64,000 bases of DNA from Candidatus Levyibacteriota bacterium (GCA_036788695.1 DAIQMY010000001.1:396767-460766); one strand, 5' to 3'; shown: positions 1,081-64,000, counted from the stretch's first letter. Program-made: numbers and translations. The notes: generated from the sequence alone by a model not told the origin.

Positions 1081-1081
1081 T

Positions 1082-3242: not shown

Positions 3243-3302
3243 ATACTGCATTTTCATATTACGCTTGCATATACGTACTTCCTTCGCTAATAATTAGTAT
3301 GT

Positions 3303-4184: not shown

Positions 4185-4192
4185 AAACATGT

Positions 4193-4447
4193 ATGGGTAA
4201 ACACAACAGCTATTACATATTAGAAACATTTTTACTGGGGATAGGTTTTTTTGCGATTTATATCTATTCACCACATGTCGTGATAGAGACAATATTAATT
4301 GGATTATTATTAGTATTTTATTCCGGAATGGGAATATTTCATCACTACAAAGAGCATGACATTCATGCAAAAATTGTGCTAGAATATATACTTATTAGTT
4401 GTCTTGTTCTGTCCATTTTTATGTTTTTAAAAAGCGGAATAGTATGA
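4193..4447 (+). CDS. small hydrophobic membrane protein, function unknown
   Basis: 84 aa with three predicted hydrophobic helices. ATGA overlap with rfbA suggests it is translated. Confidence 0.35.
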   Translation: MGKHNSYYILETFLLGIGFFAIYIYSPHVVIETILIGLLLVFYSGMGIFHHYKEHDIHAKIVLEYILISCLVLSIFMFLKSGIV

Positions 4448-5166: not shown

Positions 5167-5232
5167 TGGTGTATACTGGCATGTATAGGAAACAGAGAAA
5201 AAACGTATAGTATTTTACCTTGATTTAAATAT

Positions 5233-7115: not shown

Positions 7116-7118
7116 AAG

Positions 7119-11546: not shown

Positions 11547-13130
11547 ATGCGCAAGAAAATGAAAAGAATATTTTTTAAAAAAGAGAACATCGCAATAGTT
11601 TTTATTCTTTTGGTTGGTGGCTTTTTTAGGCTCTATAAAATCTCAGAATATCTTACATTTTTGGGAGATGAGGGCAGGGATGTTCTTGTTGTAAAGCATA
11701 TTCTGGATGGTAATCTTACATTACTTGGACCTACAGCCTCAGTTGGTGGATTTTTTCTGGGACCGATCTACTACTATATGATGGCTCCTTTTTTACTCCT
11801 ATTTAACTTTAATCCTGTGGGACCGGCTGTTATGGTAGCACTTTTTGGTGTTGCAACCATATGGTTGGTGTATAGGGTGACGCGTGATTTTTTTGGTTAC
11901 TATCCGGCTCTTATTTCCTCATTCCTGTATGCAATTTCTCCGTTAGTAATCATTTATTCAAAATCGTCATGGAATCCTAATACTGTTCCCTTCTTCACAC
12001 TCTTAATGCTGTTCCTGCTTTATATGGGCTTGATGAAGAAATCGAGTAAATATTTTTTTCTTTCAGGCATAACCCTTGGAATACTGCTTCAGCTGCATTA
12101 CCTGACAACATTTCTTGGTGTTTTCTGTGGTATTTATATTTTGGTGGGTACATTTTATGGCAATAGTAAAAAAATAGTAGAATCACTCAGAACAGTACTT
12201 AAAAGATATGGGCTATTTGCGGGAGGAATAATTATTGGCTGGTCGCCATTTTTGGCGTTTGAAATTCGTCACGGCTTCCCTAACGTTAAAAGTATCTCTG
12301 AATTTGTCCTCTCATCTGGCGAAACAGGGAATAACGGACAATACTTTACTATTGTCTCAGATGTTTTTTTAAGACTATTTGGAAGACTTCTTTTAGCATT
12401 TCCGAGAGTAGAAGATTTGCGTTTATATTCACCGGCAGTTTTAGATGTATGGGGTTTTGCCTCATACGCAATAGGATTTTTATCAATAATTATGTGTTTA
12501 GTCGGGATTATCTATTCATTTAGAAAAAAAGATTCGTCATTTTACAAATATTCTTTACTTCTTTTATGGCTTCTTATCTGCGTGCTTTTGTTTGGCTTTT
12601 ATAAAAAAGCGATTTATGATTATTACTTTGGAATTTTATTCCCCCTCCCCTTTGTTTTATTTGGCGGGCTTGTGTCTTACGCATTTACGCGAGGAAAAAT
12701 TGTGAGCATCGCAGTTTTAGTTGGAGTATTAGGAATGGTAGCGCTTAATTTATACAACACTCCAATTTTTTATCCCAGAAATAACCAGCTAAAACAGGTA
12801 AGAAGTATTTCTGAATTTGTGTTATCAAAAACAGATGGAAAGCCGTTTAACTTTGCTGTTATCTCATCGGGGGGGAATTCTGACTATGCATACAGATACT
12901 TTTTTGAGGTAAACGAAAAGATACCTGTAACTATAGAATTTCCCGGCGCGGATCCAAAAAGAAATACTATTACTGACCAGTTGCTAATTGTATGCGAATC
13001 AGTGCCATGTCAGCCCCTAGGATACCCCTTATGGGAGGTTGCAGGCTTTGGACAGGCGGAGATAGTGGGGGAATGGCCAATATCAGTTGTGAAGGTCTAC
13101 AAGCTGGTCCACTATGAGGAAAAAAAGTAA
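11547..13130 (+). CDS. GT-C family membrane glycosyltransferase (ArnT/PMT-like)
   Basis: About 12 TM helices with a loop motif FLGDEGRD after TM1. Positioned directly after the polyprenyl-P sugar synthase. Confidence 0.6.
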   Translation: MRKKMKRIFFKKENIAIVFILLVGGFFRLYKISEYLTFLGDEGRDVLVVKHILDGNLTLLGPTASVGGFFLGPIYYYMMAPFLLLFNFNPVGPAVMVALFGVATIWLVYRVTRDFFGYYPALISSFLYAISPLVIIYSKSSWNPNTVPFFTLLMLFLLYMGLMKKSSKYFFLSGITLGILLQLHYLTTFLGVFCGIYILVGTFYGNSKKIVESLRTVLKRYGLFAGGIIIGWSPFLAFEIRHGFPNVKSISEFVLSSGETGNNGQYFTIVSDVFLRLFGRLLLAFPRVEDLRLYSPAVLDVWGFASYAIGFLSIIMCLVGIIYSFRKKDSSFYKYSLLLLWLLICVLLFGFYKKAIYDYYFGILFPLPFVLFGGLVSYAFTRGKIVSIAVLVGVLGMVALNLYNTPIFYPRNNQLKQVRSISEFVLSKTDGKPFNFAVISSGGNSDYAYRYFFEVNEKIPVTIEFPGADPKRNTITDQLLIVCESVPCQPLGYPLWEVAGFGQAEIVGEWPISVVKVYKLVHYEEKK

Positions 13131-13340
13131 CTGTTTTTATTGTTGAGATTACATTACCTCTTATACCCTTTTTTAGATGTATCGTCATTTTTCTAAGCCT
13201 TGTATTTCGTATCCGATTATTCTGATGTTTTATTCAGTTGATACTCTGATGTATAACAAAAACCCGATTATTAAATGTTCCTTGAACGTCAAGTAACACT
13301 TGAATATCGGGTTTTTGGGTTTTTGTAGCAAAAAGAGAGC

Positions 13341-13484
13341 TTACTTTGCTCCAATTTTGAACATTGCTGTTCCACAAACTGGGCACTTTCCTTTCATTGC
13401 TGGTTTACCATTTTTCATGGTAACTGGTGTTGCGTTTGGATCTTCTCTTTTTGCGCGACATTTAACACAGTACATGCTTGCCAT
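13341..13484 (-). CDS. 47-aa zinc-ribbon protein (DUF5679-like), absent from the ORF track
   Basis: Translates to MASMYCVKCRAKREDPNATPVTMKNGKPAMKGKCPVCGTAMFKIGAK with CxxC...CxxC pairs. A GGAGGTG Shine-Dalgarno lies 8 nt upstream of the ATG on the minus strand. Confidence 0.7.
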   Translation of the reverse strand: MASMYCVKCRAKREDPNATPVTMKNGKPAMKGKCPVCGTAMFKIGAK

Positions 13485-13883
13485 ATTTAATAATCACCTC
13501 CTTTTTTTCTTGCTTTTATTAATATCCCAAAAAATGAATATTTAGGATATTGCTATGCAAGACAAAGTAAAAACTGAAAGACAAAAAGATGAGTAATGAG
13601 GTTATGAAAAGAGTCTGACGCGTATCACGGAGAACATACGTATAATCGTGAGAAGAATTTGATGCAACTGTTTTCTGAGGGTTTTTTTTTGATTGAATAG
13701 GTGAGAGAAATGAATATACAGGAGTTGTAGTAAGGCTACTTGCTTGAGTAATCATTTGGGCTTTCATTTTTTCTTTTTTTGTTTTTCTTTTTTTACTCAT
13801 ACAGCTTTATACCCAAATTAGAACGCAACTTAAATTGAGCCTGATCTGTGCTCATAGGGTGCATGACACAAAAAGTATCATAT

Positions 13884-13912
13884 TGACTTGCACTGTGTCA
13901 AGAGGCTAAAAT
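13884..13912 (+). promoter_or_regulatory. sigma70-like promoter TTGACT-N17-TAAAAT
   Basis: TTGACT at 13884-13889, a 17-nt spacer, then TAAAAT at 13907-13912. This lies about 37 nt upstream of the 13949 ORF. Confidence 0.45.
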
Positions 13913-13948
13913 AAAAAACGCCCTTTAAGGGTCCTTTCTCAAAACATA

Positions 13949-14419
13949 ATGAATCTTCAATTTATCTTTATTCTATGCCTTATTCTAGCTTTATGGAACG
14001 TGATTCTTACGTTCTTTTTTTTAAGGTTCTTTTTTTATTATCAACGCATAACAAAGGGGAACAAAAAAGAATCTTTAGTTAAAATGCTCGATCAAATTGT
14101 TTTAGATCAGGAAAGAATGAAAAAAGCACTTGACGAACTTGTTGCGGCCTGTGTTAAACTAGAAGCAGATGGTCTACTCCATATTCAAAAAGTAGGCCTT
14201 TTGCGTTTTAATCCATTTAAGGATACAGGTGGAGACCAGAGTTTTATTCTTGCCCTTGTTGATGCGAAGGGTACAGGGGTAATAATATCCAGTCTGCATA
14301 CAAGGTCAGGTACCAGATGGTACGCGAAGCATGTTACAAATGGCAAAGGTTCTGAATATGAACTCTCAAAAGAAGAAGAAGAGGCATTGAAAACAGCAAA
14401 AACCATGCGAACACAATGA
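13949..14419 (+). CDS. membrane-anchored protein, DUF4446-like
   Basis: N-terminal TM helix and a conserved-looking block RFNPFKDTGGDQSFILALVD. Confidence 0.45.
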   Translation: MNLQFIFILCLILALWNVILTFFFLRFFFYYQRITKGNKKESLVKMLDQIVLDQERMKKALDELVAACVKLEADGLLHIQKVGLLRFNPFKDTGGDQSFILALVDAKGTGVIISSLHTRSGTRWYAKHVTNGKGSEYELSKEEEEALKTAKTMRTQ

Positions 14420-15603
14420 AACAAACAAGAAAAAACATAATTCTTATTTCTATAATTCTCTATGGTGTAACTACCATTATCTCCTATTTTATTTTCGCAA
14501 ACACATCCTTTACGAATAACCTCATGAGAACGCCTATTCCCCAACCGAAACAAGTAGGAGGAGATAAAGATGGAAAATTAGTGTTTGATGAAACACTTCC
14601 CAAAACAGAAGCATGTCCATTAAACGGGCAAAAGTACTCAGTACAGCAGAAGAATTGGTGGGAAAAACATAGGCCTCTTGGGGTTATGATAGAGAATTCA
14701 GTAGATGCTCGCCCACAGTCTGGACTACAATCAGCGGATGTTGTGTATGAAGCCGTTGCTGAAGGTGGTATTACGCGTTTTCTAGCTGTATTTTATTGCC
14801 AGGACGCAGGGCAAATTGGTCCTGTTCGTTCTGCTAGAACATATTTCCTTGATTATATATCGGAATATGGAGAGAATCCTTTATACGCACACGTAGGTGG
14901 AGCAAACACCCCTGGTCCAGCAAATGCATTGGGACAAATTATAGATTATGGATGGAATTTTTATAATGATCTCAATCAATTTTCAGTACCATTCCCAATA
15001 TTTAAAAGAATTGAGAATATAAATGGACGACCTGTTGCAACAGAGCATACAATGTATTCAAATACTGGCGCATTATGGGAGTATGCGGCAGATAAGAGAA
15101 AGTTATCAAATAAAGATGAAGACGGTGTTAGTTGGGATAAGACATTTGTTCCTTACGCGTTCAAAGAGGATGCAGCATCATCTGCTAGGCCAGCAGCGCA
15201 AAAAATTTCATTTGATTTTTGGGACGGATATGAAGATTTTAGTGTTGTTTGGAATTACAATAGTGCGACAAATCTCTATGTAAGACAAAATGGTGGAGAA
15301 AGTCATATGGATAGAAATACAAAAAAGCCTTTGGCTGCAAAAAATGTTGTACTGTTATTCATGAAAGAATCTAACGCAAATGATGGGTATGAGAACAATT
15401 TACATATGCTTTACGGCACAAAGGGAACAGGGAGGGCACTGATATTTATGGATGGAAAAGAGATTGAGGGCAGATGGAAGAAGCCAACAAGGGAATCAAG
15501 GACAATTCTTACAGATGCTGCAGGTCGTCAGATAGATTTAAATCGTGGGTTAACATGGTTTGAAATATTAGCAACAGATACTAATGTGACTGTTACTCCA
15601 TGA
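14416..15603 (+). CDS. DUF3048 (YerB-like) secreted/membrane-anchored protein
   Basis: GVMIENSVDARPQSGLQSADVVYEAVAEGGITRFLAVFY matches the DUF3048 core. N-terminal TM anchor present. 4-nt overlap with the upstream gene. Confidence 0.6.
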   Translation: MKQTRKNIILISIILYGVTTIISYFIFANTSFTNNLMRTPIPQPKQVGGDKDGKLVFDETLPKTEACPLNGQKYSVQQKNWWEKHRPLGVMIENSVDARPQSGLQSADVVYEAVAEGGITRFLAVFYCQDAGQIGPVRSARTYFLDYISEYGENPLYAHVGGANTPGPANALGQIIDYGWNFYNDLNQFSVPFPIFKRIENINGRPVATEHTMYSNTGALWEYAADKRKLSNKDEDGVSWDKTFVPYAFKEDAASSARPAAQKISFDFWDGYEDFSVVWNYNSATNLYVRQNGGESHMDRNTKKPLAAKNVVLLFMKESNANDGYENNLHMLYGTKGTGRALIFMDGKEIEGRWKKPTRESRTILTDAAGRQIDLNRGLTWFEILATDTNVTVTP

Positions 15604-15683
15604 CGAATTCTATAAAGAAAACCCCTTGAGACACAGACTAATAAGTGTTACAATTCTTTGTACAAACTTGCCCCTAAAAACCT

Positions 15684-16259
15684 ATGCTAAAAGACCTCAT
15701 AACATCTAAGACGCGCGTAAAATTATTGTGTTTATTTATTGAAAACTCAGATGATATGTTTCATGTGAGAGAGGTTGTAAGAAGAGTTAGTGAAGAGATA
15801 AACGCGGTAAGACGAGAGCTAATTCTTCTTGAGAAAAAAGGCATACTTTCTCGTGAGCCAAGAGCAAACAGAGTATATTACTACCTTGATAAAAACTATC
15901 CTTTTTATTATGATTTAATCCATCTTTACGCCAAAACAAACGGATTAGGCGCTGATATTATTAAAAATAGAGTAAAGTTGGGAAAGATCAAATACGCAAT
16001 GCTTTCAGGAAAGTTTACAAGGAAAGTAAGAGAAAGCCCAGATGATGTAGATTTACTAATTGTAGGAACAGTTGTGTTGCCCGAGCTTGCATTGGTAGTA
16101 AAACAGGAAGAAGCAAAGAGGGGTAAAGAAATAAATTACACAGTTATGACTGAGGAGGAGTTTGTGTTTAGGAAAAAACGTCTTGATCCATTTATTGTCT
16201 CTGTTATAAGTGGTTCAAGAATTATGCTCATAGGGGATGAAGAGAGTATGCTTAGTTAG
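15684..16259 (+). CDS. putative transcriptional regulator with an N-terminal winged-helix domain
   Basis: The N-terminal ~70 aa resemble an ArsR/MarR-type wHTH (RVKLLCLF...VREVVRRV...IN). The C-terminal half is unassigned. Confidence 0.35.
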   Translation: MLKDLITSKTRVKLLCLFIENSDDMFHVREVVRRVSEEINAVRRELILLEKKGILSREPRANRVYYYLDKNYPFYYDLIHLYAKTNGLGADIIKNRVKLGKIKYAMLSGKFTRKVRESPDDVDLLIVGTVVLPELALVVKQEEAKRGKEINYTVMTEEEFVFRKKRLDPFIVSVISGSRIMLIGDEESMLS

Positions 16260-33715: not shown

Positions 33716-33786
33716 TGCCGGATCATCTAATGGTAGGATAGTGGACTCTGAATCCATTCATTCTGGTTCGAATCCAGGTCCGGCAG
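33716..33786 (+). tRNA. tRNA-Gln (anticodon CUG)
   Basis: Hand-folded cloverleaf: acceptor TGCCGGA/TCCGGCA (U1-A72, as in bacterial tRNA-Gln); D-stem ATCT/GGAT; anticodon stem GTGGA/TCCAT; loop CTCTGAA with U33 and anticodon CTG at 33748-33750; T-arm TCTGG-TTCGAAT-CCAGG; discriminator G. CCA is not encoded. Confidence 0.8.
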
Positions 33787-54099: not shown

Positions 54100-54170
54100 C
54101 AGTTTCTATTGTGAGGCTTTATCAGATGAATTATCGTCTTGGTGCTCTTTATCTTTAGGGAGAATTCAAG

Positions 54171-54644
54171 TTAATTAGGAGAACAGGTACCGTTATAGAC
54201 TGACGCGGTTGAGCAAATTTTTCCGTCAGGCATCTTACATTGTCCATTCTCCGATCCTTGGGGTTTTCCACCGCGAAGCGCACAAAAGACTTGAGCTGTT
54301 GTATCATAGCCAATAGAATGAACCCCACCTACAGGACACTGTCCATTGTAAAGAGAATAGAGCTCACAACTCATATCATCAGCAAAATTGCAGACATTGT
54401 AATATCCTGAGTTTCCTCGTTTTGCTGTGGTTACAAATCCACCATTTTCAATACACTTTGTATAAGCTGCTGATGCAACCGCTCCGGCCTTTGTAGGGGT
54501 GGAAGTTGAAGAAGTGGTGGCTCCAAGCACATTTGAGGCAGCACGAAGATTACCACCTAAAAGAAACGCTCCGACAATTAAAATTATTACAGCAAATACA
54601 CTAATAAACGCAAAAGAAAAAAAGTCAGAATTTTTCTTTGCCAT
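54171..54644 (-). CDS. secreted DUF333 domain protein (paralog of 49851-50660)
   Basis: NVCNFADDMSCELYSLYNGQCPVGG...DGKICSTASVYNGTCSP aligns with the C-terminus of the other DUF333 protein. N-terminal TM/signal. Confidence 0.55.
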   Translation of the reverse strand: MAKKNSDFFSFAFISVFAVIILIVGAFLLGGNLRAASNVLGATTSSTSTPTKAGAVASAAYTKCIENGGFVTTAKRGNSGYYNVCNFADDMSCELYSLYNGQCPVGGVHSIGYDTTAQVFCALRGGKPQGSENGQCKMPDGKICSTASVYNGTCSPN

Positions 54645-54777
54645 ATATTTACTATTCCAAATAGAAAGAAAGCTGTCAAGAAGGAAAATGTGGTTAAATG
54701 GCTGGGTGGGAACAGCCTTTCTTTATAGAATTGCAATTGAAAGAAAGACGGAAATATACTAAAATGCTTTTTGACGA

Positions 54778-55326
54778 ATGGAAAGTAATATTGAAAAAGC
54801 TATTATTGGAGCGCGGATTGAAGCAGAACGGAAAGCTAGCTATTATCAAGGAAAAAGCAGGTATGAGAAAGCCTACCATAAAAACTACGATAATAATCTA
54901 TCTGGATTCATAAATAGAAAAAAATATAGAAAAAGGCAAGAAAAACTTCAGGAAGACGAAGTCGCAGAACTAGAAAGTCTCTTTTATATGTGCTCTGTTA
55001 CAGATCTTTATTTTGGTGACAATAATTCATGGGTATTAAAAGCTTCAATGGATGATAGAGATATTGTTGTTAAGCAAAAAGAGAAGAATGGAAATCACTT
55101 TTTCTCTGTCTTGATAGATGGGAAAGTGCCACCAACTGAAGAAAAGTATAAAACCTATGCTAATAAATATTCTGGAGTAGTAGAGCGGATTAAATCTAGA
55201 TTAAGAAATCAGGAGTTATATAAAGAAGAAATAACAGAGGGCACAGGTGAAGAAATCTTGGAAAAACCAGCGGAGGGAAATCAAGCTAAGGATAAAAGTT
55301 CCAGGGATCATTTAAGGTTGCTTTAG
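54778..55326 (+). CDS. hypothetical protein
   Basis: 182 aa, charged, with no recognisable motif. Convergent with the next gene and overlapping it by 41 nt. Confidence 0.35.
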   Translation: MESNIEKAIIGARIEAERKASYYQGKSRYEKAYHKNYDNNLSGFINRKKYRKRQEKLQEDEVAELESLFYMCSVTDLYFGDNNSWVLKASMDDRDIVVKQKEKNGNHFFSVLIDGKVPPTEEKYKTYANKYSGVVERIKSRLRNQELYKEEITEGTGEEILEKPAEGNQAKDKSSRDHLRLL

Positions 55327-56131
55327 TGGTTGTATCTGAAACTCGTTTATATAAACCAACAACTCCAGGGTTTTCAGATAGATGCCATCCTAAATCAATC
55401 CAATCTTCATGTATCCCATAGTCACCCTCATCACCTATACTCAGAAGTCCAGATTTCTCATGATAAAGTGCTACAGGCGATAGAGCGTCACATTCTCTAA
55501 CTATACCTTTTCTTTTTAGAAATCTTTCTAAATCTGTGTAGAAATCAGGTCTTAAAATTACCCGTTTCTTTTCTTGAAGAAATGTAATCTCATCATCTGT
55601 ATCTGGTTCGTATTCATGCCTACGTATGGGATAGTTTTCTATAAAATCTCCAAATGTTATGTTATCGCTTAGCGCAAGAAATGGCAATTCTTCTGGTGAA
55701 TTTCTTTCAAATGCTAATTTATATAGTAACTCAATGTCTGTATCAGTGGGAGGAGGATTTCCTAAAAGTTCTCTGCGTACCACGTGAGCATTCCACAAGG
55801 AAGTTTCAATTTTATCTCCTAAATCTTTTAATTGAATTCTAGCAAGACCATTAGCGATGGGAAATTGAGGAAGAAGAAAGGCAGGATTGTTTGGGTCTGG
55901 ATACCATGCGCCAGCTTCAATTTCATATACGCCAGGAGTATCTAGCCTTCCAACAATTGGAGCACCTAATGGAGTTGTAATGTCTGCAAACTCATTAATA
56001 CTAAGAGGTAAGGTTGTTTGCACCGCTTTTAATTCTTCTGGATTTCGGGTATGTCTGTCCTTAAGTTCAAAAATTGATGGTATAGCCTGCAGTGTTTGTT
56101 TAAATAAGGGATTTAATTCAGGTGAAGCCAT
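55286..56131 (-). CDS. hypothetical protein
   Basis: 281 aa with no recognisable motif. Confidence 0.4.
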   Translation of the reverse strand: MASPELNPLFKQTLQAIPSIFELKDRHTRNPEELKAVQTTLPLSINEFADITTPLGAPIVGRLDTPGVYEIEAGAWYPDPNNPAFLLPQFPIANGLARIQLKDLGDKIETSLWNAHVVRRELLGNPPPTDTDIELLYKLAFERNSPEELPFLALSDNITFGDFIENYPIRRHEYEPDTDDEITFLQEKKRVILRPDFYTDLERFLKRKGIVRECDALSPVALYHEKSGLLSIGDEGDYGIHEDWIDLGWHLSENPGVVGLYKRVSDTTTKATLNDPWNFYP

Positions 56132-56387
56132 GGGGAGATTATATCACAGCATATCACAACGCTCATGGCAATTAAATTATTTTAGCCTTAAAATTGAGCT
56201 GGTTAGAGGAATTGTAAAAATTATCTTTAGTTTTAGTAAAGTGGCGCACTTGATCTCCTTCCAAAATGAACTTCGTTTCTATTACCCTCTTTGCATTTGG
56301 TGATCCCTAAAAAAAGCTTATGACCTACATATTCTCATAAAAAATCATATTCAAAAATCTAAAATAGTACTGTATAATAGTCTATTC

Positions 56388-58052
56388 ATGAAGCAATTAT
56401 CAGATCAATTAAAGTCAAATTGGAAATCAGGGCTTACAGTATCCTTTGTATCAATTCCACTTTCCATATCTCTTGCTATTGCTGCAGGTTCTACTCCAGT
56501 TGCAGGGATTGTAACTGCCATATGGGCAGGTTTTTTTGCTGCGCTCTTTGGAGGGAGCAGATTTAATATTGTTGGTCCAACAGGAGCTCTTTCGGGAATT
56601 CTCGCAACGTATGCATTTTTAAATGGAGCAGAAAGCCTTGCATTTTTAGCATTAGCAGTAGGAATTGTGATTATTATTTCTGGATTATTAAGACTTGAAA
56701 GATTCCTTATCTTTATCCCTGCAAATACTATACATGGGTTTACTCTAGGTGTTGCATTTATTATTGCAATAAACCAATTAAATGCTGCTCTTGGTCTTCA
56801 GAATATACCAGGTCATGAGAAATTTATTGATAATTTTTTTGAATCACTAAGAAATATTCAGTTTTTATCCATGGAAACGTTTATCGTTTTCGTAACCTTT
56901 CTTACAGGAATTTTAATAACTGAAAGGTATAGAAAAAGGATTAAACTTCTTGCAAATATACCCGCAACGGCACTTTTTGCCGTTTTAGGAGTTCTTATTG
57001 GGTTTTTGTCTTCTGAACACATTATATCTTTGAATATTCAGACATTAGGATCAAAATATGCACATTTATCAGGGCAGTTATTTATTCCTCCCCATCTTTC
57101 ATTTAACCTCACCGGAGGTTTTATTTCTGCAGTTCTCACCGTTTCTTTAATCGCAATTATTGAAACTATGCTATCTGCACGAATTGCTGATTCAATGACA
57201 AAAACAAAGCATAATAAGAAAAAAGAAATGTTTGGGCTTGGTATTGCAAATATTGCGTCTGGTCTTGCAGGAGGTATTCCTGCAACAGCAGCACTTGCTC
57301 GTACTTCCTTGAATATTAAAAGTGGTGCAACTGATCGCGCATCTGCTCTTGTAAGTTCTTTGTCGGTTGCCATAATCTCCCTTTTCTTACTTCCATACTT
57401 CAAATACATTCCAATGGCAGTAATAGCTGCTATCTTAGTAACCGTTGCTGTGCGAATGGTTGAACAAGAACATTTCGTGAGAATGTACAAAATAGACAAA
57501 AAAAGCTTTATCATCTCTATGCTCGTCGCTCTTGTAACAATTTATGAGGATCCTACTATAGGCATACTCTTTGGGGTGGCAATTTCGTTGTTTTTCTTTC
57601 TTGAAAATATATCTCAAGGAAGATTCGAGTTGGGAATTAATGACTTACATAAGAAAATGATTGCACAAATTGCAGGGAAACAAACTTACACGCTACACAA
57701 AAACTCCCACACAATCGTATATTCGATAAAAGGACATTTGACCTACATTGATAGTCAAGCTCATCTTTCACGGTTTGAAACTGAACATAAACATCATAAA
57801 AATATAATTTTAAGGCTTAGGGAATTAAGCTTTATTGATATAGATGGAGTAGATGCTTTTGAAGAAATTGTAAGTATTCTTGAGAGGCGCGGAATAGAAG
57901 TATATGTTACAGGCGTAAATGATTTCATACTTCATATGCTTCATAAGAGCAAGCATTTTATAGCTCTGCAAGAAAAAGGAAGGGTGTTTCCGCATACTAC
58001 AGATGCGCTGCGTTATCTGGGATTTAAAATTCCTGAGAAACACGTTATGTAA
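56388..58052 (+). CDS. SulP/SLC26-family anion (sulfate) permease with C-terminal STAS domain
   Basis: N-terminal transporter core (FGGSRFNIVGPTGALS) and a C-terminal STAS-like domain. Confidence 0.8.
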   Translation: MKQLSDQLKSNWKSGLTVSFVSIPLSISLAIAAGSTPVAGIVTAIWAGFFAALFGGSRFNIVGPTGALSGILATYAFLNGAESLAFLALAVGIVIIISGLLRLERFLIFIPANTIHGFTLGVAFIIAINQLNAALGLQNIPGHEKFIDNFFESLRNIQFLSMETFIVFVTFLTGILITERYRKRIKLLANIPATALFAVLGVLIGFLSSEHIISLNIQTLGSKYAHLSGQLFIPPHLSFNLTGGFISAVLTVSLIAIIETMLSARIADSMTKTKHNKKKEMFGLGIANIASGLAGGIPATAALARTSLNIKSGATDRASALVSSLSVAIISLFLLPYFKYIPMAVIAAILVTVAVRMVEQEHFVRMYKIDKKSFIISMLVALVTIYEDPTIGILFGVAISLFFFLENISQGRFELGINDLHKKMIAQIAGKQTYTLHKNSHTIVYSIKGHLTYIDSQAHLSRFETEHKHHKNIILRLRELSFIDIDGVDAFEEIVSILERRGIEVYVTGVNDFILHMLHKSKHFIALQEKGRVFPHTTDALRYLGFKIPEKHVM

Positions 58053-58075
58053 ATAAACAATTGGGTGTGAGCGCT

Positions 58076-58149
58076 GTGTAACCCAAATGCAAAGCCCTGA
58101 GCCTGTCGAATGACTACCATTAGGCATTAGAATATGTTTCGGGTTGAAT
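58076..58149. repeat. mosaic repeat copy A: head and tail modules only
   Basis: GTGTAACCCAAATGCAAAGCCCTGAGCCTGTCGAA...CTACCATTAGGCATTAGAATATGTTTCGGGTTGAAT matches the head and tail of copy B. Confidence 0.7.
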
Positions 58150-58153
58150 TGGT

Positions 58154-58786
58154 TTATCGCAAGCTGTTGGCACTCTGCAGTGATGCGACCCCCATTGGAT
58201 TTGTAACTCTACTTCTCAAGCCTCTTCCGTATTTCCAAATTTCAACAGAATCGTATCTTGTTAGGTACTGAGTCCAAGGAAGTGTATCTCGTCTTTTATC
58301 GTGAATTACCTCTCCTACTGTAAAGTTTTTATGAAGAAATCTTCCGCCCCCGTAGCTTGGTACTCTCCCACTCTCTAATTCGCGTTCTGAAAATGTTACA
58401 ATAGCATCTTTCCAAATACCATCCAGGTCTTGTTCCTCTGTTAACATTCCCCAATCATTCAAATGGTAACTTCGGAATTTGCCTTGTGTGAGACCAGTTA
58501 CTTTTAATATAGTTCCAATGGTGAAGTCACCAACATTAAAAGTTTGCCCTTCTGATAAAGTTCTTATTGGATTTTCTGATCTGTTTAATTGCGCAGCGAG
58601 CATTCGGTTAAAATATGGGGCTTCTATCATACCCATACTATCGCGATTAGCATGTTTGACCATGGCTCTCCAAATAACATCAGGAGTATATTGAGGCTTG
58701 GGTTCGCTTGACCATTGACAAGAATCTTTGAAGCTATGACCACTCCAATTTTCTTGAATTTCATTTTTTCTTATTCTCTCAGCCAT
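58154..58786 (-). CDS. hypothetical protein (210 aa) bracketed by repeat copies A and B
   Basis: No motif recognised. The flanking 10-bp GCAAGCTGTT occurs at both ends (58151-58160 and 58820-58829). Confidence 0.45.
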   Translation of the reverse strand: MAERIRKNEIQENWSGHSFKDSCQWSSEPKPQYTPDVIWRAMVKHANRDSMGMIEAPYFNRMLAAQLNRSENPIRTLSEGQTFNVGDFTIGTILKVTGLTQGKFRSYHLNDWGMLTEEQDLDGIWKDAIVTFSERELESGRVPSYGGGRFLHKNFTVGEVIHDKRRDTLPWTQYLTRYDSVEIWKYGRGLRSRVTNPMGVASLQSANSLR

Positions 58787-58833
58787 GAGGGTGATTTTAG
58801 CTCGATTTTATATATAAAGCAAGCTGTTTAACG

Positions 58834-59049
58834 TGTGACCCACATGCAAAGCCCTGAGCTTGTCGAAGGGTTTTCCTGTCCTGAGCTTGTCGAAGGGTTC
58901 TCGCCCTTTGTGCTCGCAGGGAACCAAATTCGAAGCTCTTTGGAGCAGTGGAAACAGGTCTTGCAGTCTGAGCGTATTTCAGCTTCTTTTTTAATTACCA
59001 TGGGATACTTGGTACGAATGGAAATTAGAATATGTTTCGGGTTGAATAT
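58834..59049. repeat. mosaic repeat copy B, full length (about 216 bp)
   Basis: Modules GTGTGACCCACATG, a doubled CCTGAGCTTGTCGAAGGG, TTCTCGCCCTTTGTGCTCGCAGGG, AACCAAATTCGAAGCTC, TTGGAGCAGTGGAAACAGGTCTTGCAGTCTGAGC, and tail GGAAATTAGAATATGTTTCGGGTTGAAT. Confidence 0.75.
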
Positions 59050-59063
59050 TCCCCCTTAGGTAC

Positions 59064-59378
59064 TTGAATCTAATCAAAGAGGGTGCTAGAATTGGTCGTA
59101 ATATGTCAGAAAGAGAACGCCCAGAATGGGAAAGGAAAGAAAAGGTGGCGTTGAAATATAGCCCTAGCGATATGTTGCTAGGAGCACTTCAGGAAATTGC
59201 AAATAAATTTCATCTAGATAGTTTTGATGTAGCTCACGAGTTGTCTTTAAGGGTAGGTGCAAGCCTGCTTGCAGCAGAAAATATTTTTGACGAAAAAGGA
59301 TTAACAGTTTTAGATCCAAACGGGGAACGAGCTCATTTAAGTTTACCCAACGATGATGCTCATCAATCCGTTATTTGA
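59064..59378 (+). CDS. hypothetical protein (104 aa)
   Basis: Sits between repeat B and the GIY-YIG gene. No recognisable motif. Confidence 0.35.
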   Translation: MNLIKEGARIGRNMSERERPEWERKEKVALKYSPSDMLLGALQEIANKFHLDSFDVAHELSLRVGASLLAAENIFDEKGLTVLDPNGERAHLSLPNDDAHQSVI

Positions 59379-59387
59379 ATTCATAAA

Positions 59388-59421
59388 GTGTGACCCCACG
59401 GGAATGGATTCGGCAAGCTCA
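59388..59421. repeat. short repeat module GTGACCCCACGGGAA...CAAGCTCA abutting the GIY-YIG stop codon
   Basis: The same module recurs at 63628-63666 at the 3' end of the second GIY-YIG gene. Confidence 0.6.
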
Positions 59422-59727
59422 CCATTTTTTTCCAGAGTTATCCTTTGACACGCTCCGGGATTTACTTAACTGTTTTAACAACTCTAGATTGCCCTCGAGA
59501 AGAGCTCTCTTTTTTGCAACAGTCCAACCTTTAATTTGTTTTTCACGTTTTTCTGCATCTTTTCTTGTTAGATGCTCTTCAGTAAAAACTAGCTCAATGT
59601 AAGAAAACTCTTTAGTACCAATGTTTTGTTTTGATGTGTGAGATTTTAATCTTTGAGCAACGTTATGAGTAAGACCAACGTAGTACGTTTTCTTATCGCA
59701 AAAAAGAATATAGACATACCAGGGCAT
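59419..59727 (-). CDS. GIY-YIG nuclease family protein (YhbQ/UPF0213-like, about 103 aa)
   Basis: MPWYVYILFCDKKTYYVGLTHNVAQRLKSH...KGWTVAKK has the GIY...YIG pattern with conserved Arg and Glu. Start set at the ATG at 59727. The track ORF to 59895 is inflated by read-through of repeat C. Confidence 0.7.
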   Translation of the reverse strand: MPWYVYILFCDKKTYYVGLTHNVAQRLKSHTSKQNIGTKEFSYIELVFTEEHLTRKDAEKREKQIKGWTVAKKRALLEGNLELLKQLSKSRSVSKDNSGKKW

Positions 59728-59744
59728 ACACTTATTATGGTGTA

Positions 59745-59927
59745 AAACCCTGAGCTTGCCGAAGGGTGACCCAAATGTTTTTGAATTGCCCTGAGCTTGT
59801 CGAAGGGTTCTCGCCCTTTGTGCTCGGAGGGGAACCAGATTCGTGGCTCCCTCGAGAAATGGAAAACTGTCTTGGGGCCTGAGCTCACTCCGCATCTACT
59901 GACCCGCTACCACTAGAATTTAGAATC
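59745..59927. repeat. mosaic repeat copy C
   Basis: CCTGAGCTTGCCGAAGGGTGACCCAAATG...CCTGAGCTTGTCGAAGGGTTCTCGCCCTTTGTGCTCGGAGGGGAACCAGATTCG...CTACCACTAGAATTTAGAAT. Confidence 0.75.
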
Positions 59928-60883
59928 TTTTCTAATGGTGGATTGTTTTTCTGTATCTTTATTCCTAAGAGCTGAGGAATATCGGTTCTTATCCATACAT
60001 TATCAAGATTGTCTGAATACGGTTGTAATGGATCACGTCTAAGAGTGTCGGGAATTAACTTGTCTTCCCAGGTAAATCTCTGAACGTATTCGGTGTTGTG
60101 ATCCAACACCTTCTCAAGTGGCTGAGTTCGGGGAACTACTGCTCGTTGATCAACATCCTTTTCTTCGGGTACGTATGAAACAATCTCGACAGAGCTGGAG
60201 TTGACAGTAACTGCCATATTTCTTCCATTTCGCACTAAATCATATTCCTTTCCTATCTCAAGCGTTAGATCACCTTCAGTGAGATCGGACGAACCACGTC
60301 CTTTCAATACAGCTTCACCTGTCTCCTTATCAAATTTGATCTCTAGAGAATCGTTGTCCCATCCTTTTTCTGATCTATTTTGAGCCCGTAGGATATTATT
60401 ATCCATGAGTAGCAATCCTTCTAGGGTAGCGATAGTACTGTCTTGGAAGGCATAGTTAAAAGAAAGTTCAAGGTTATGGGCAAAAGGAATTAATACCCCT
60501 AGATTGTCTTCACTTTTATCAAGAACAGAGCCTACCTGGGTAATACCGATAGTATCTGGGTGATGAAGAGTAAATCCGCCGTTTTTCATGAAGGCAAGGC
60601 TAAAATTGGTGAGGTCATTGAGCAACTCACCTTCAGGAAATTCTGGCCAATCCATATCTAGGTCTGAATTCCAGGAGTCAGTCAAACGTAATATCCTCAC
60701 TTTTTCTCTTTTCGCAATTACATCTGCGCTTCCGGGTTCATTCCCAGCTCTAAACATATTTTGCTCATCAAGAATCACAGCATCCCTATTGTATGGTGCG
60801 TCTTTAAATGCTGCTCTTTGCTTATCAAGGTGGGTTCTGTGTAGATCTTCAGGCATATGAAGGTAGTATACACAAATATCCAA
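59885..60883 (-). CDS. hypothetical protein (332 aa)
   Basis: No recognisable motif. Flanked by repeat copies C and D. Confidence 0.45.
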   Translation of the reverse strand: MDICVYYLHMPEDLHRTHLDKQRAAFKDAPYNRDAVILDEQNMFRAGNEPGSADVIAKREKVRILRLTDSWNSDLDMDWPEFPEGELLNDLTNFSLAFMKNGGFTLHHPDTIGITQVGSVLDKSEDNLGVLIPFAHNLELSFNYAFQDSTIATLEGLLLMDNNILRAQNRSEKGWDNDSLEIKFDKETGEAVLKGRGSSDLTEGDLTLEIGKEYDLVRNGRNMAVTVNSSSVEIVSYVPEEKDVDQRAVVPRTQPLEKVLDHNTEYVQRFTWEDKLIPDTLRRDPLQPYSDNLDNVWIRTDIPQLLGIKIQKNNPPLEKILNSSGSGSVDAE

Positions 60884-60926
60884 GAGGGGAATAGGCCTAG
60901 CTTAAACCCAAGTTTGGTTGGAACCT

Positions 60927-61100
60927 AAATAGCCTTGAAAATTCGGGATTTGAAAAAGATTTCGAAAATATAGCTTCAGGTGACCCAAATGTTTTTGAAT
61001 TGGAACCAAATTCGAAGCTCGTTGGAGCAGTGGAAGCAAGTCTTACAGCCTGACTTCAATTCAAAGCTACTGACCAACTACCCCTAGGAATTGGAATACC
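60927..61100. repeat. mosaic repeat copy D
   Basis: AAATAGCCTTGAAAATTCGGGATTTGAAAAAGATTTCGAAAATATAGCTTCAGGTGACCCAAATG...GGAACCAAATTCGAAGCTCGTTGGAGCAGTGGAAGCAAGTCTTACAGCCTGAC...CCCCTAGGAATTGGAATACC. Confidence 0.75.
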
Positions 61101-61140
61101 GAGGGAATAGTAATAACTTACTTAGATAACCCTGAGTTGA

Positions 61141-61710
61141 CTACTTTTTCCTGAATGCTTGAAATATGAAGAAAATAAGCACAACTAAGCTTACAAGGTT
61201 TATTAGAAAAAGCGATGTCGTCCTATTGTAAATGTTTACTAAATACTCATGAGACCCAGCTTTGAGATGAAAATTTGCATAGTATTCAAAAATTCTCTGG
61301 ACTAAGATCAGCATTGATTGAATAAAGAAGTATATCCCAAGTCCTAGAAGCAACAGACGTATTCTTAAAATTGCATTCTGTTGTTTACTAAATGTTCTAT
61401 AGACAGCAAAAAATACAATACTTACGGCAAACAATAATGAACCCAATAAGATTGGTCCATATGTAATAAGTAGTGGATAGATAATTTCCAAAAAGTTTTT
61501 ATTCTGTTGCTGGTCGAGTGAAGCTCCATAAAATGCCCAGAAAAAACTTGCAGGCAGTACTACTCCAAATCCAAAAGGAATTGGAACTATGAAAAAAAGT
61601 GCGATATAAATTATGATAGCGAGAAAAAAGATTGGCATTATTTTTTTCATTGTTACTTGAAGTATTTCAAGATTTAAATAGTAAGTCAAGTAAGCTCTTG
61701 AGGGCTTCAA
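61141..61710 (-). CDS. hypothetical polytopic membrane protein (189 aa)
   Basis: Five or six hydrophobic helices. Flanked by repeat copies D and E. Confidence 0.45.
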   Translation of the reverse strand: MKPSRAYLTYYLNLEILQVTMKKIMPIFFLAIIIYIALFFIVPIPFGFGVVLPASFFWAFYGASLDQQQNKNFLEIIYPLLITYGPILLGSLLFAVSIVFFAVYRTFSKQQNAILRIRLLLLGLGIYFFIQSMLILVQRIFEYYANFHLKAGSHEYLVNIYNRTTSLFLINLVSLVVLIFFIFQAFRKK

Positions 61711-61715
61711 GGGAA

Positions 61716-61966
61716 TTCGAACTATTTTAGCTTCAAAATCAGAAGAATTTGTCGAAGATTTTAAAATTTAGCTTCAAGTGAGCCAAATGTTTTCTTTGAC
61801 CCTCGAAGCTTTAGCGAAGTGGGTTGAATTGCCTGGTACTCCAGGTTCTCGCCCTGAGTACTCGAAGGGGAACCAAATACGAAGCTCGCTTGAATAGTGG
61901 AAACAAGTAATTCAGCCTGAGCTTAGTTCAGGTTCTTTGGCTAACTACCATTAGAAATTAGAATCG
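61716..61966. repeat. mosaic repeat copy E
   Basis: GAATTCGAAC...AGATTTTAAAATTTAGCTTCAAGTGAGCCAAATG...TTCTCGCCCTGAGTACTCGAAGGGGAACCAAATACGAAGCTCGCTTGAATAGTGGAAACAAGT...CTACCATTAGAAATTAGAATCGGG. Confidence 0.75.
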
Positions 61967-61999
61967 GGTATAGAAGATGGAAGATAAGTTTAATAGAAA

Positions 62000-62533
62000 C
62001 TATTTAGTTTCAGAAGTAGCAAGTCTTTTAAAACCCTTAACTGGAAAATTAGCATTATCCTGTCTGAAAGATGTAATTTCTGTTCTCGGATTAAGCAGAG
62101 CGTGGTCTAGGGCCTCTTCAATTTCTTTTATGTCAGTCACCTTGTGTGGCATTCCTGATTCCATATGTTTTGAATCTCTTCCTCTTACAGTGACCCTCAG
62201 GGGATTGTCTCCGATGCTTATGCCTACTAAGTCTACTCTTCCAAACATCCATTTTTCAGGATCAAATTTATTTCCATATTCACCATGTTTTGTGAGATCA
62301 GTGATTAGGCATATCGTTGGGTCTGCTCCTTCTTCAATTGCTTGATCGGTTGAAATGCCTACTATTGCGCGTTGTCCTTGTTCTGTCAGAGAAGCTGCTC
62401 GATCAAGCGCCAGTGATACCATAGGAGAAGTTTTGAGTTTTGCTAGATCTGCCAGGCGATATTCTAAGCGTTTTTCCAAAATTGAAGCTGTAATCCTTTC
62501 CCGTTGTGGACCTTCATGTAACCGTGTACTCAT
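62000..62533 (-). CDS. hypothetical protein (177 aa)
   Basis: No recognisable motif. Flanked by repeat copies E and F. Confidence 0.45.
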   Translation of the reverse strand: MSTRLHEGPQRERITASILEKRLEYRLADLAKLKTSPMVSLALDRAASLTEQGQRAIVGISTDQAIEEGADPTICLITDLTKHGEYGNKFDPEKWMFGRVDLVGISIGDNPLRVTVRGRDSKHMESGMPHKVTDIKEIEEALDHALLNPRTEITSFRQDNANFPVKGFKRLATSETK

Positions 62534-62575
62534 AGATGCTATTCTATAACTATTTTAATGATTGTCAAGCAGCGC

Positions 62576-62618
62576 TTGTTCTGAGCCTGCCCAAGGACTA
62601 CCATTAGGAATTAGAATC
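62576..62618. repeat. mosaic repeat copy F: short head-tail form like A
   Basis: GTTCTGAGCCTGCCCAAGGACTACCATTAGGAATTAGAATCCA. Confidence 0.65.
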
Positions 62619-63525
62619 CATTTACTGCTGCAACAATATCATCGTCAGCTTGTTCTGTATCCCAAGCCACTTGAGGATTAAAATTATCGGGTCTAAAATC
62701 ATTTATTCTTTTGTAATCATCATCTGACATTATAAAATCGGTGGCAGAGTAATTCTCATCAATGTGTTTCTTGCTTGTAGAAAAAACCATTGGACTATAT
62801 CCTAAGTTACAAATCCAGTTTAGAACAATTTGATTTTGTGTCTTTCCATACTTTTCTGACAGCTCAACAAGTAAGGGCCAATTTTCCTCCATAGTCTTAG
62901 CTCTTCTTAAAGGTCTCCAGATTATATTTTTAACACCTAACTCATCACAAATATTGAATACCCCTTTATCTTGAAGCACCCTAACTTCAAAACTAAGGTG
63001 TCCTTCGTGAGCATAAAACTTATCACCAAACTCATTCTTAAAGGCTTTAATAAATTCGGGGCTGGCATTTGAAAGACTTACAAATCTCGTTTTCCCCGCC
63101 TGAAGTAAATCTTTTAGTATTGGATAGACTTCATCTTCACCAAACTTTAATACGAGTCCTTGTGTTATTAAGGTGGAGTCAGCGTAATCGGTATCCATTA
63201 TTTTATGAAAGCTTTCAACGTCTTCGGTAATTGTTTCTATGGACTGTAAGTCTCGTGGGTAAAAAGAGTGAGTAAAGAAAATATCTTCTCGCTTCACTGA
63301 GCTTTTATCGAGTGCTTGCTTAAAGATTTTTATTGAGTTTCCATGTCCGTAGCCTAATGCTATCTCAGTAAAATTTATTCCTTTATTTAGAGTATAAACG
63401 AGTGCTGAGACGTAGGTTTCATCATCCCGTTTTTCTGTCAGTTCAATATCTCTATGACCTCTACCACCAATCCCATAACTTCCTATTCCAATCCTTGATA
63501 CATCTTTACCAGAAATAGTTTTCAT
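62611..63525 (-). CDS. aldo/keto reductase family oxidoreductase
   Basis: IGIGSYGIGG, ALGYGHGNS...IF and the C-terminal IIWRPL-type motifs fit the AKR fold. Confidence 0.65.
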   Translation of the reverse strand: MKTISGKDVSRIGIGSYGIGGRGHRDIELTEKRDDETYVSALVYTLNKGINFTEIALGYGHGNSIKIFKQALDKSSVKREDIFFTHSFYPRDLQSIETITEDVESFHKIMDTDYADSTLITQGLVLKFGEDEVYPILKDLLQAGKTRFVSLSNASPEFIKAFKNEFGDKFYAHEGHLSFEVRVLQDKGVFNICDELGVKNIIWRPLRRAKTMEENWPLLVELSEKYGKTQNQIVLNWICNLGYSPMVFSTSKKHIDENYSATDFIMSDDDYKRINDFRPDNFNPQVAWDTEQADDDIVAAVNGF

Positions 63526-63569
63526 CTAATCGATTATATCATCAACTACCCAAAAAACACTTCGAACCG

Positions 63570-63666
63570 AAATAGCCTCAAAAACTGAAGATTTGAAAAA
63601 GATTTCGAAAATATAGCTTTATGTGACCCCACGGGAAGTTTCCTCGGTGAACTCGGAACAAGCTCA
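63570..63666. repeat. mosaic repeat copy G: shares the D-type 5' module and the GTGACCCCACGGGAA module
   Basis: AAATAGCCTCAAAAACTGAAGATTTGAAAAAGATTTCGAAAATATAGCTTTATGTGACCCCACGGGAAGTTTCCTCGGTGAACTCGGAACAAGCTCA. Confidence 0.7.
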
Positions 63667-63960
63667 ATTTTCAACTTCTCGAACGAGGTCTTTGGCAAAT
63701 TCAGTACAAGCGTTTATACCAAGTCTTTCATCTATTAACATTTGTTTCTTTGCGTGGGACCATCCTTTAAATTGTCTTTCTCTTTTTGCAGCTTCATATT
63801 TATTTTCGTATCGTTCACTGTAGACAAGAGTAAATCGAGAAAACTGTTTGGTAAAAGTGGATTGCTTGTTTTTATGTTGTAAAAATCTGTTTTTCAAATC
63901 ATCGGAAATTCCTACATAAAAAGTTTTCTCGTCGCAAAGAAGGATGTAGACATACCACAT
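63664..63960 (-). CDS. GIY-YIG nuclease family protein (YhbQ/UPF0213-like), second copy
   Basis: MWYVYILLCDEKTFYVGISDDLKNRFLQHKNKQ...FKGWSHAKK. Paralogous to the 59419-59727 gene. Confidence 0.7.
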   Translation of the reverse strand: MWYVYILLCDEKTFYVGISDDLKNRFLQHKNKQSTFTKQFSRFTLVYSERYENKYEAAKRERQFKGWSHAKKQMLIDERLGINACTEFAKDLVREVEN

Positions 63961-64000
63961 GCTGTTTTATAAGTGGGTGCCTTCTTGAATACAAGAAGTG

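Follow-up and report, generated by a model that had tools for sequence, protein, structure and literature searches.

A tRNA-Glu-anchored array of repeat-bounded genes in Candidatus Levyibacteriota as a putative integron-like cassette platform

Near one end of a 64,000-nt stretch of DNA from a Candidatus Levyibacteriota bacterium (GCA_036788695.1, DAIQMY010000001.1:396767-460766; the whole stretch is called the window here), eight open reading frames (ORFs) are separated by copies of one repeated unit. We consider this array, with a probability of about 0.6, to be a hypervariable, tRNA-Glu-anchored, integron-like cassette platform, in which cassettes are exchanged by site-specific recombination from tail to tail of the units by a recombinase supplied in trans. 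The unit begins with a 20-nt tail, ATTCTAATTCCTAATGGTAG, that resembles the anticodon-loop region of tRNA-Glu; most units close with a copy of the tRNA 3' end, GGGTCAC, which is followed by a promoter-like box and one gene. All positions are window coordinates, and L numbers denote loci on other contigs or on the extended contig of the genome itself. The latter, L001 (from the 491-kb metagenome contig ENA ERZ794922 NODE_1), is the exact reverse complement of the window end and extends past base 64000. Modules of the unit were read on the window plus strand, which is antisense to the genes; units listed as minus are given in gene orientation.

Evidence for exchange comes from the hyp177 cassette. 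Its protein falls into a single cluster among 5.8 billion sequences, with a representative from a metagenome-assembled genome (MAG) of Candidatus Levybacteria. In this MAG (L079) and in L080-83 the neighbours of hyp177 are hyp271 and hyp264, whereas in the window they are an aldo/keto reductase (AKR) and a membrane protein. The block common to the window and L079 comprises 673 nt with 98.7% identity (6 mismatches in 652 nt). Identity starts at TTCTAATTCC of tail F, the bases before it being different, and ends at ...CCCGATTCTA of tail E; the last 13 nt of tail E show three differences between L079 and the window, and beyond the tail the sequences are unrelated. Both breakpoints lie within one segment of 6-7 nt, TTCTA, in the pseudo-anticodon loop. 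An assembly chimera seems unlikely, because each of the two arrangements is found on five contigs and the junction repeat is only 20 nt long. Since the DUF333 gene of the L079 contig is only 74% identical to the window copy, the hyp177 cassette is much younger than its surroundings.

A break at the same tail edge was seen between L013 and L048, which share an identical unit and > 400 nt downstream of it and are unrelated upstream. When related genomes were compared for gain or loss of repeat-bounded units, as an earlier reading of the window from its sequence (the original prediction) had proposed, cassette order and content were found to differ between strains. The cassettes are compact, share an orientation and vary in content from strain to strain, as integron cassettes do. 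A crossover of single-gene cassettes at GGGTCAC had also been considered, and was dropped when the L079 comparison placed it in the tail.

A repeat unit derived from tRNA-Glu

Five to eight same-strand copies of the repeat lie within 58078-63638, and none in the rest of the 64 kb. The tail CTACCATTAGGAATTAGAAT occurs five times at ≤ 3 mismatches (0.01 expected), and the modules CCTGAGCTTGTCGAAGGG and GGAACCAAATTCGAAGCTC occur five and four times (0.02 and 0.01 expected respectively); the long modules have no match in the window outside 58078-63638, and window matches to a profile hidden Markov model (HMM) of the unit are confined to 58920-62618. The repeat is real, and far beyond chance. The original prediction was borne out in that all modules it had named were recovered at their coordinates, every one on the window plus strand, that a copy lies in each gap between the eight ORFs, and that the 64 kb hold no comparable family elsewhere, long modules and unit HMM matching only inside the array. 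Its count of seven or eight copies of one element was right as to the repeats but lumped two types: copy G (63561-63638) and a module at 59388 differ from the others, since each holds 16 nt that copy the 3' end of tRNA-Glu and comes immediately after a GIY-YIG gene.

The array comprises the following features.

58078-58133, minus: unit A, a short terminal unit; tail 58114-58133, CTTCGACAAGCTCAGG-like module 58096-58111, core-like CATTTGGGTTAC 58078-58089
58154-58786, minus: hyp210, cassette gene without family match
58835-59032, minus: unit B; core CATGTGGGTCAC 58835-58846, two CTTCGACAAGCTCAGG modules 58853-58868 and 58880-58895, inserted hairpin module, mid 58920-58938, pre 58940-58954, degenerate tail ~59013-59032
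59064-59378, plus: hyp104, the sole gene in reverse orientation, cargo of the cassette that begins at tail C
59390-59765, minus: GIY-YIG mini-element 2; ORF (GIY-YIG 2) 59419-59730, 5' flank TTCGGCAAGCTCAGG 59749-59764, 3' flank an inverted copy of the motif and 15/16 of the tRNA-Glu 3' end, 59390-59405
59766-59926, minus: unit C; tail 59907-59926, mid 59831-59849, hairpin module, core CATTTGGGTCAC 59766-59777
59885-60883, minus: hyp332, cassette gene whose ORF reads through tail C (gene caller: 323 aa, 59885-60856)
60918-61097, minus: unit D with its post module; canonical 118 nt (tail, pre, mid, core) at 60980-61097, HMM E-value 5e-31
60918-60979, minus: post module of D, leading into hyp332
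61141-61710, minus: gene of a membrane-like protein, ORF of 189 aa (gene caller: 165 aa, 61141-61638)
61711-61964, minus: unit E with its post module; tail 61945-61964, mid 61869-61887, core CATTTGGCTCAC 61778-61789
61958-62616, minus: exchanged block with the hyp177 cassette, 98.7% identical in L079-L083, bounded by TTCTAAT (tail F) and GATTCTA (tail E)
62000-62533, minus: hyp177 ORF, with promoter-like TTGACA-16-TAGAAT at 62541-62568
62541-62617, minus: unit F, short and without core; tail 62598-62617, the exact consensus, plus the hyp177 promoter-like site
62611-63525, minus: AKR gene, with TGATATAAT ~10 nt before its ATG
63561-63622, minus: post module G, homologous to the posts of D and E
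63626-63995, minus: GIY-YIG mini-element 1; ORF (GIY-YIG 1) 63664-63960, exact 16-nt tRNA-Glu 3' end 63623-63638

In gene orientation, the canonical unit of ~118 nt consists of the tail GATTCTAATTCCTAATGGTAG, ~30 variable nt, the pre/mid block TTTCCAYTGCTCYAR-GAGCTTCGAATYTGGTTCC and the core AATTCAAAAACATTTGGGTCAC, and is often followed by a 'post' module, AAGCTATATTTTCGAAATC...GGCTATTTCGGTTCGAA. Tails are 20/20 identical in many loci while the centre of the unit varies, and this identity extends across contigs whose housekeeping TrhO is only ~70% identical. A -10-like box stands 7-25 nt before the ATG, after the post module, as exemplified by TGATATAAT (AKR) and TTGACA-16-TAGAAT (hyp177). Each cassette may therefore have a promoter of its own, as judged from these boxes; a generic scan returned 16 promoter-like sites against 14.4 expected, that is, no overall enrichment. 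Genes also tend to end at the unit: in 18 of 28 tails (17 loci) a same-strand ORF ends at -46 to +17 of the tail start, and in five of these 18 the stop lies inside the tail. The tails carry stop codons within them; the AKR gene takes its TAA stop from tail F. There is also a second type of unit, which is shorter (CCATCCAGGCAAGAAGCGGTTCGAATAAAYGTACCGTAGGGTCAC and related sequences; L031 2440-2470 and 3205-3285, L070 17095-17140, L005 6480-6520). It likewise terminates in GGGTCAC, looks like a T-arm joined to an acceptor end, and is near-identical in L031 and L070 although the adjoining genes differ.

The fixed end of the array lies beyond the window and was out of view of the original prediction, decisive though it is. 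It is a tRNA-Glu(CTC) gene at L001 9433-9505 (equivalent to window 64021-64093, 21 nt beyond base 64000; ARAGORN, Rfam 60.9 bits), which heads the array, lies directly upstream of the cassette genes and shares their strand. Its last 16 nt (CTTCCCGTGGGGTCAC) recur exactly at 63623-63638 and as a 15/16 copy at 59390-59405; its last 7 nt, GGGTCAC, terminate units B, C and D, and units A and E have versions of it that differ by one base. A same-strand tRNA-Glu stands at the array head in all five loci that contain this gene (L001, L006, L034, L042 and L070), and in L006 the tRNA ends in GGTAC and the unit in GGGGTAC instead of GGGTCAC. In L034 a post module homologous to G comes directly after the genuine tRNA-Glu, so the 3' half of the real tRNA takes the position of a unit. 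No units were found near the other tRNA gene of the window, tRNA-Gln at 33716. Partial tRNA copies thus bound units on the 3' side of a tRNA gene, as in tRNA-anchored islands.

By sequence comparison, the unit itself is a remodelled 3' half of tRNA-Glu. Variant units of L028 and L034, GATTCTAATTCC(TAAT/TATT)GGTAG-TGGATTCGACT(T/C)C..., align to tRNA-Glu positions 29-64 (GATTCTCATTC-TGGTA-GGATTCGACTTC) with p ≤ 0.001 (1000 shuffles). The tail therefore corresponds to the anticodon loop and beyond (TTCTAAT for TTCTCAT), and the core to the acceptor 3' end. For the window's units, the derivation from tRNA is supported by the shared tail and by the intermediate variants. The non-tRNA version of the unit has a 4-nt insertion in its tail and a central segment of ~65 nt.

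Of the structure claimed for the repeat, a part was confirmed. A long inverted repeat is present in units B, C and, in degenerate form, E, and absent from the other units; it is due to an extra module of ~43 nt (CC..GCGAGCACAAAGGGCGAGAACCCTTCGACAAGCTCAGGGC) inserted between GGTTCC and AATTC in these three (58896-58919 in B, 59806-59830 in C, 61850-61868 in E), which may have arisen as a small insertion of its own or by duplication of an att half-site. The claim that each unit can form a long hairpin did not hold: folded as RNA or as single-stranded DNA, no unit did better than its shuffles, with single-unit z-scores near 0 (-0.8 to +0.6). Nor is there support for a family of repetitive extragenic palindromes (REP) or miniature inverted-repeat transposable elements (MITE), which had been offered as an alternative, because the family is confined to one locus; copies dispersed in the manner of REP, bacterial interspersed mosaic elements or MITE are absent from the other 58 kb of the window and the 9.4 kb beyond it. 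Canonical units have neither a stable palindrome nor terminal inverted repeats with target duplication, the ~43-nt module being what gives B, C and E their inverted repeat. As far as the 73 kb covered in this genome (the 64-kb window plus 9.4 kb upstream) can show, this is not a dispersed REP or MITE family.

Recombination mechanism and rival explanations

We propose that a cassette consists of a pseudo-tRNA unit, the 'post' spacer, a -10-like box and one gene that ends at or in the next tail. The unit would open with the pseudo-anticodon loop TTCTAAT (not TTCTCAT) and, in most cases, close with the pseudo-acceptor end TTTGGGTCAC. Conservative site-specific recombination from tail to tail would insert cassettes, remove them and exchange one for another, in formal analogy to the attC x attC and attI x attC reactions. 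The gene of the recombinase would reside at another place in the genome or on a visiting element. The best fit would be a trans-acting tyrosine recombinase of the tRNA-anticodon-loop crossover kind, because the recombining sites are identical and imitate an anticodon loop. Homologous recombination is unlikely, because one hyp177 breakpoint offers no more homology than the 20-nt tail and at the other the tail ceases to match after 7 nt. The array would thereby serve as a store of individually transcribed accessory genes. More tentatively, and with the odds somewhat against it, Patescibacteria (at least Levybacteria and their relatives) could own an independently evolved equivalent of the integron, a gene-capture system that genes enter at tRNA-Glu, in which a tRNA-Glu-half site also delivers a promoter and a trans-acting, so far unrecognised recombinase moves the gene.

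Several observations count against such a platform. Gene calls and Pfam searches of the flanking 10 kb in both directions revealed neither intI nor a gene of any other recombinase, where the original prediction had looked to an intI-like tyrosine recombinase beyond the window, and none was present among the window ORFs and gene calls checked (~1-23, 24-36 and 38-64 kb). Exchange has been resolved on both sides once, for hyp177, and on a single side once more, and the crossover segment has no conserved DNA on its left, which is unusual for the core site of a classical two-arm recombinase. Neither circular cassettes nor empty-site junctions were observed in the assemblies, and all sequence data are metagenome assemblies. 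Finally, when the window's own units are aligned alone with the tRNA, the match stays below significance (p 0.04-0.26).

The best surviving alternative, which we nevertheless consider unlikely, is a series of integration scars: conventional elements with integrases would have entered tRNA-Glu and decayed, leaving displaced tRNA halves as units and cassettes that are immobile now. The locus is indeed a tRNA integration hotspot, its units are bounded by partial tRNA copies, and tandem arrays of islands that contain partial tRNAs are a familiar phenomenon (bioRxiv 10.1101/2020.12.28.424599; PMC9580842). However, the unit does not look like a decaying tRNA half, since its non-tRNA version is kept and its tail remains 20/20 identical where TrhO has diverged. 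The scar model also sits badly with one gene per unit, with the lack of integrase remnants and with a 98.7%-identical cassette in a different context.

The hotspot is apparent from larger elements that join at GGGTCAC. In L002 (ENA ERZ27240680 k141_441056), from a second sample, the same array is preceded by an insert at 1-7379 resembling an integrative and conjugative element (ICE), with genes for TraC-like and TraG/VirB4-like proteins (type IV secretion system, T4SS), an M23 peptidase, SMODS and SLATT (a pair like that of the cyclic-oligonucleotide-based anti-phage signalling system, CBASS), a helix-turn-helix protein and PLDc_2. The contig begins inside the insert and so does not reach its recombinase end; insert and array meet exactly at GGGTCAC. 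In L070, a 511-aa large serine recombinase (Resolvase/Recombinase/Zn-ribbon) abuts the tRNA-Glu 3' end, where the sites have the properties of attL, attR and a hybrid resembling attP (S2 = left half of S3 + right half of S1). One relative of this enzyme overlaps tRNA-Pro in L076; another adjoins PLDc and T4SS genes homologous to those of the L002 insert (TraG 71%, M23 55%, PLD 55% at the amino acid level). Cassettes of the window, L005, L027, L031, L034 and L079 encode no integrase of their own, the separate 3.4-kb element of L070 being the only carrier of an integrase-type gene, and a tblastn search with the serine recombinase of L070 gave no homologue in either the window or the other array loci. 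We infer that a serine recombinase is the better candidate for the GGGTCAC junctions.

The L070 element has further repeats. At 12244-15700 the serine recombinase gene lies between perfect inverted repeats of ~105 nt, and the next segment, with two ORFs, has a second inverted-repeat pair of ~88 nt; all repeat ends read GG(G/T)TCAC, in alternating orientation, and could represent an invertible arrangement or nested att sites. Upstream of the serine recombinase family there is a conserved GC-rich non-coding region of ~350 nt without Rfam match (L076 7640-8000; L077 7555-8000; L078 7730-8000; L070 13814-14320), which lies between inverted AAAATTTTTGCGTT / AACGCAAAAATTTT motifs and includes an attP-like sequence, GTTCGAATTTTTT..GTTCAC|T.

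We think it improbable, too, that the unit is a regulatory element, repeated between genes, which unites promoter and gene-end signals and was spread and kept uniform through homologous recombination or gene conversion without a dedicated recombinase. Such an element would account for the -10-like boxes, or the full promoter-like site TTGACA-16-TAGAAT, that follow the units, for the stop codons in tails, for the conservation of sequence and not structure and for the failure to find a recombinase. Yet RecA-type exchange would need more homology than the hyp177 breakpoints offer (a 20-nt tail; 7 nt), neither the remaining 58 kb of the window nor the 9.4 kb upstream contains the family, promoter-like sites as a whole do not exceed the chance expectation, and the unit is anchored at a tRNA gene from which it derives.

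Two of the eight array genes are of the GIY-YIG type, and each stands beside a copy of the tRNA 3' end. Such small genes (~100 aa) behave as mini-insertions at tRNA-Glu-like 3' ends; both elements have TTCGGCAAGCTCA on the 5' side and an inverted copy of it on the 3' side, and a third, apparently degenerate copy lies between trhO and tRNA-Glu at L068 10930-11290. That homing-type endonucleases cut tRNA-Glu-like sequences and cassettes were copied in through double-strand-break repair is conceivable, as GIY-YIG 1 is flanked by an exact 16-nt direct repeat of the tRNA-Glu end, its uninterrupted site exists in L079 (1591-1640), a further GIY-YIG copy adjoins the tRNA in L068, and there is a weak match to a group I intron endonuclease model. 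We regard this route as very improbable, because the GIY-YIG insertions lie at the GGGTCAC end and not at the tails where cassettes swap, because Pfam scans and gene calls showed no GIY-YIG gene in L005, L031, L034, L070 and L079, and because the ~100-aa proteins amount to the catalytic domain alone, with no DNA-binding domain matched.

A classical integron array, or a cluster of attC sites lacking an integrase (CALIN), is the least credible reading and is already contradicted by the tests run: one ORF per unit, common orientation, tight packing, integron-typical cargo and strain polymorphism all fit it, but there is no IntI among the genes checked, no R''/R' consensus and no attC-like fold, and the unit stands in front of its gene, with a promoter-like box after it. 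A regular-expression search of both strands for RYYYAAC and GTTRRRY boxes, which in attC sites are 50-150 nt apart, found no pair in the units and one match inside a GIY-YIG ORF, and the RNAalifold consensus of the units was -0.66 kcal/mol with one compensatory pair; what is conserved in the units is sequence, not structure. The cassette array inferred in the original prediction therefore stands with regard to one gene per unit, shared orientation, tight packing and strain-variable order, and falls with regard to integron identity and attC sites. The integron label is wrong; the cassette logic is right.

Distribution, cargo and surroundings of the array

HMM searches placed the unit at ~18 distinct Patescibacteria loci, on one strand only per locus. 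Three carriers are from GTDB: L005 (a Patescibacteria MAG), L006 (a Candidatus Levyibacteriota MAG) and L007, labelled Gammaproteobacteria; two of five genome matches were discarded as chance hits inside rpsG and rdgC. Pattern scans of metagenomes gave at least a dozen carrier contigs, and protein look-ups added L070, L072 and L079-83. A metagenome scan with the tail had returned 57 loci, most of them chance tail-only matches that were removed by module screening. Scans of viral contigs for the mid, tail and core modules and BLAST searches of plasmids and phages with unit D yielded nothing. The 8-kb locus L007 (CAZNAA010000001.1, a 773-kb contig) has 35% GC and a canonical unit; its label 'uncultured Gammaproteobacteria' may be wrong.

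Cargo is different in every array, as determined by all-versus-all comparison of cassette ORFs; only flanking genes and the duplicate locus L014/L048 are shared. L031 carries a zeta toxin and DUF4325 with HATPase, and L027 carries SEC-C and DUF6782. The L005 array (3276-6381) contains a C39-like peptidase, a GNAT acetyltransferase, a glyoxalase/bleomycin-resistance-type protein and an ANT(6) streptomycin adenylyltransferase, as well as an apparently frame-disrupted gene, and is an instance of resistance-like cargo in a genome of the candidate phyla radiation (CPR). NCBIfam and PADLOC assigned no function to the unannotated cassette proteins, and Rfam (whole window at gathering thresholds; array at E ≤ 10) matched nothing except tRNA.

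On L001, trhO, whose product modifies tRNA, and a cluster of glycosyltransferase genes lie upstream of tRNA-Glu. Contigs that carry the closest trhO orthologues (88% and 84%; L067, L068, L069) stop 20-400 nt past trhO or inside tRNA-Glu, as would be expected of a locus that varies within the population; this suggests that variability of the array breaks assemblies there.

On the other side, the following features adjoin the array.

54100-58052, no strand given: DUF333, a 182-aa ORF, a 281-aa ORF and SulP, probably an older part of the variable island
SulP gene: convergent with the array, its stop codon adjoining unit A

The 281-aa ORF (55286-56131), beyond SulP, is homologous to h271, a cassette gene in L079 (67% nucleotide identity over 383 nt), and its ATG is preceded at a distance of 7 nt by a TGTGATATAAT box. 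In L031 and L019 units reach as far as the 3' end of lon, and in L070 and L079 the DUF333 gene itself has units on its flanks. Given these relatives and the homology to h271, the variable island probably extends from ~54100 (Lon) to tRNA-Glu, the repeat-bearing stretch being its tRNA-proximal 6 kb.

Significance and comparison with known systems

Patescibacteria/CPR bacteria have very small genomes, and little is known of how they gain and exchange accessory genes; the literature on them that we searched contains no description of such arrays. If true, a dedicated tRNA-Glu cassette platform would provide a concrete, searchable route of gene flow in this large radiation, and a second, independently evolved solution to the problem solved by integrons. 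Genes for an aminoglycoside nucleotidyltransferase, an acetyltransferase and a glyoxalase are already present in a related array. The conserved 20-nt tail is a ready probe with which the cassette pool could be amplified or catalogued from metagenomes, and because the crossover is mapped sharply, to TTCTA, candidates for the recombinase could be tested directly.

Large serine recombinase elements (phiC31, Bxb1, the SCCmec-Ccr type) have a counterpart in the 511-aa recombinase at the tRNA-Glu 3' end of L070, but this enzyme would explain the GGGTCAC junctions of large elements and not obviously the tail x tail exchange. Williams is said to have described, in 2002, tRNA-targeting integrases with crossover sublocations in the anticodon loop or at the 3' end; the two junction classes here likewise lie at the pseudo-anticodon loop TTCTAAT and the acceptor 3' end GGGTCAC. 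Known elements of this kind bring their integrase along and restore a working tRNA, whereas here pseudo-tRNA copies would recombine and the real tRNA is left untouched.

The pdif (Xer) modules of Acinetobacter plasmids are small gene modules, each flanked by XerC/XerD sites of 28 bp whose orientation alternates. These share with the array the small modules, the short sites and the lack of a dedicated recombinase, which is presumably supplied in trans; in contrast, all tails here are direct repeats, and on a chromosome. No resemblance of the tails to dif sequences was noticed, though no formal dif comparison was made.

Tycheposons of Prochlorococcus are tRNA-anchored islands formed by repeated integration (bioRxiv 10.1101/2020.12.28.424599), and tandem island arrays are likewise built by repeated tRNA integration (PMC9580842). 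The array resembles both in its position next to a tRNA gene, in the partial tRNA copies at its boundaries, in newcomers that push older ones along and in niche-related cargo. Those islands, however, are several kb long and have their own tyrosine recombinase and often replication genes, whereas single genes without a recombinase are found here, and the boundary is not a plain tRNA fragment but a conserved, remodelled pseudo-tRNA shared across species.

With integrons, super-integrons and CALINs the array has in common compact, mostly single-gene cassettes in one orientation with a recurring recombination element between them, a fixed entry point at one end and strain-variable content; the cargo of related arrays (acetyltransferase, glyoxalase, aminoglycoside nucleotidyltransferase, toxin) is similar too. 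It differs in having no IntI and a sequence-conserved tRNA-half element without significant fold. An attC site follows a promoterless gene, whereas the element described here precedes its gene and brings a promoter-like box with it, and the fixed end, which in the integron is attI with Pc, is here a tRNA gene.

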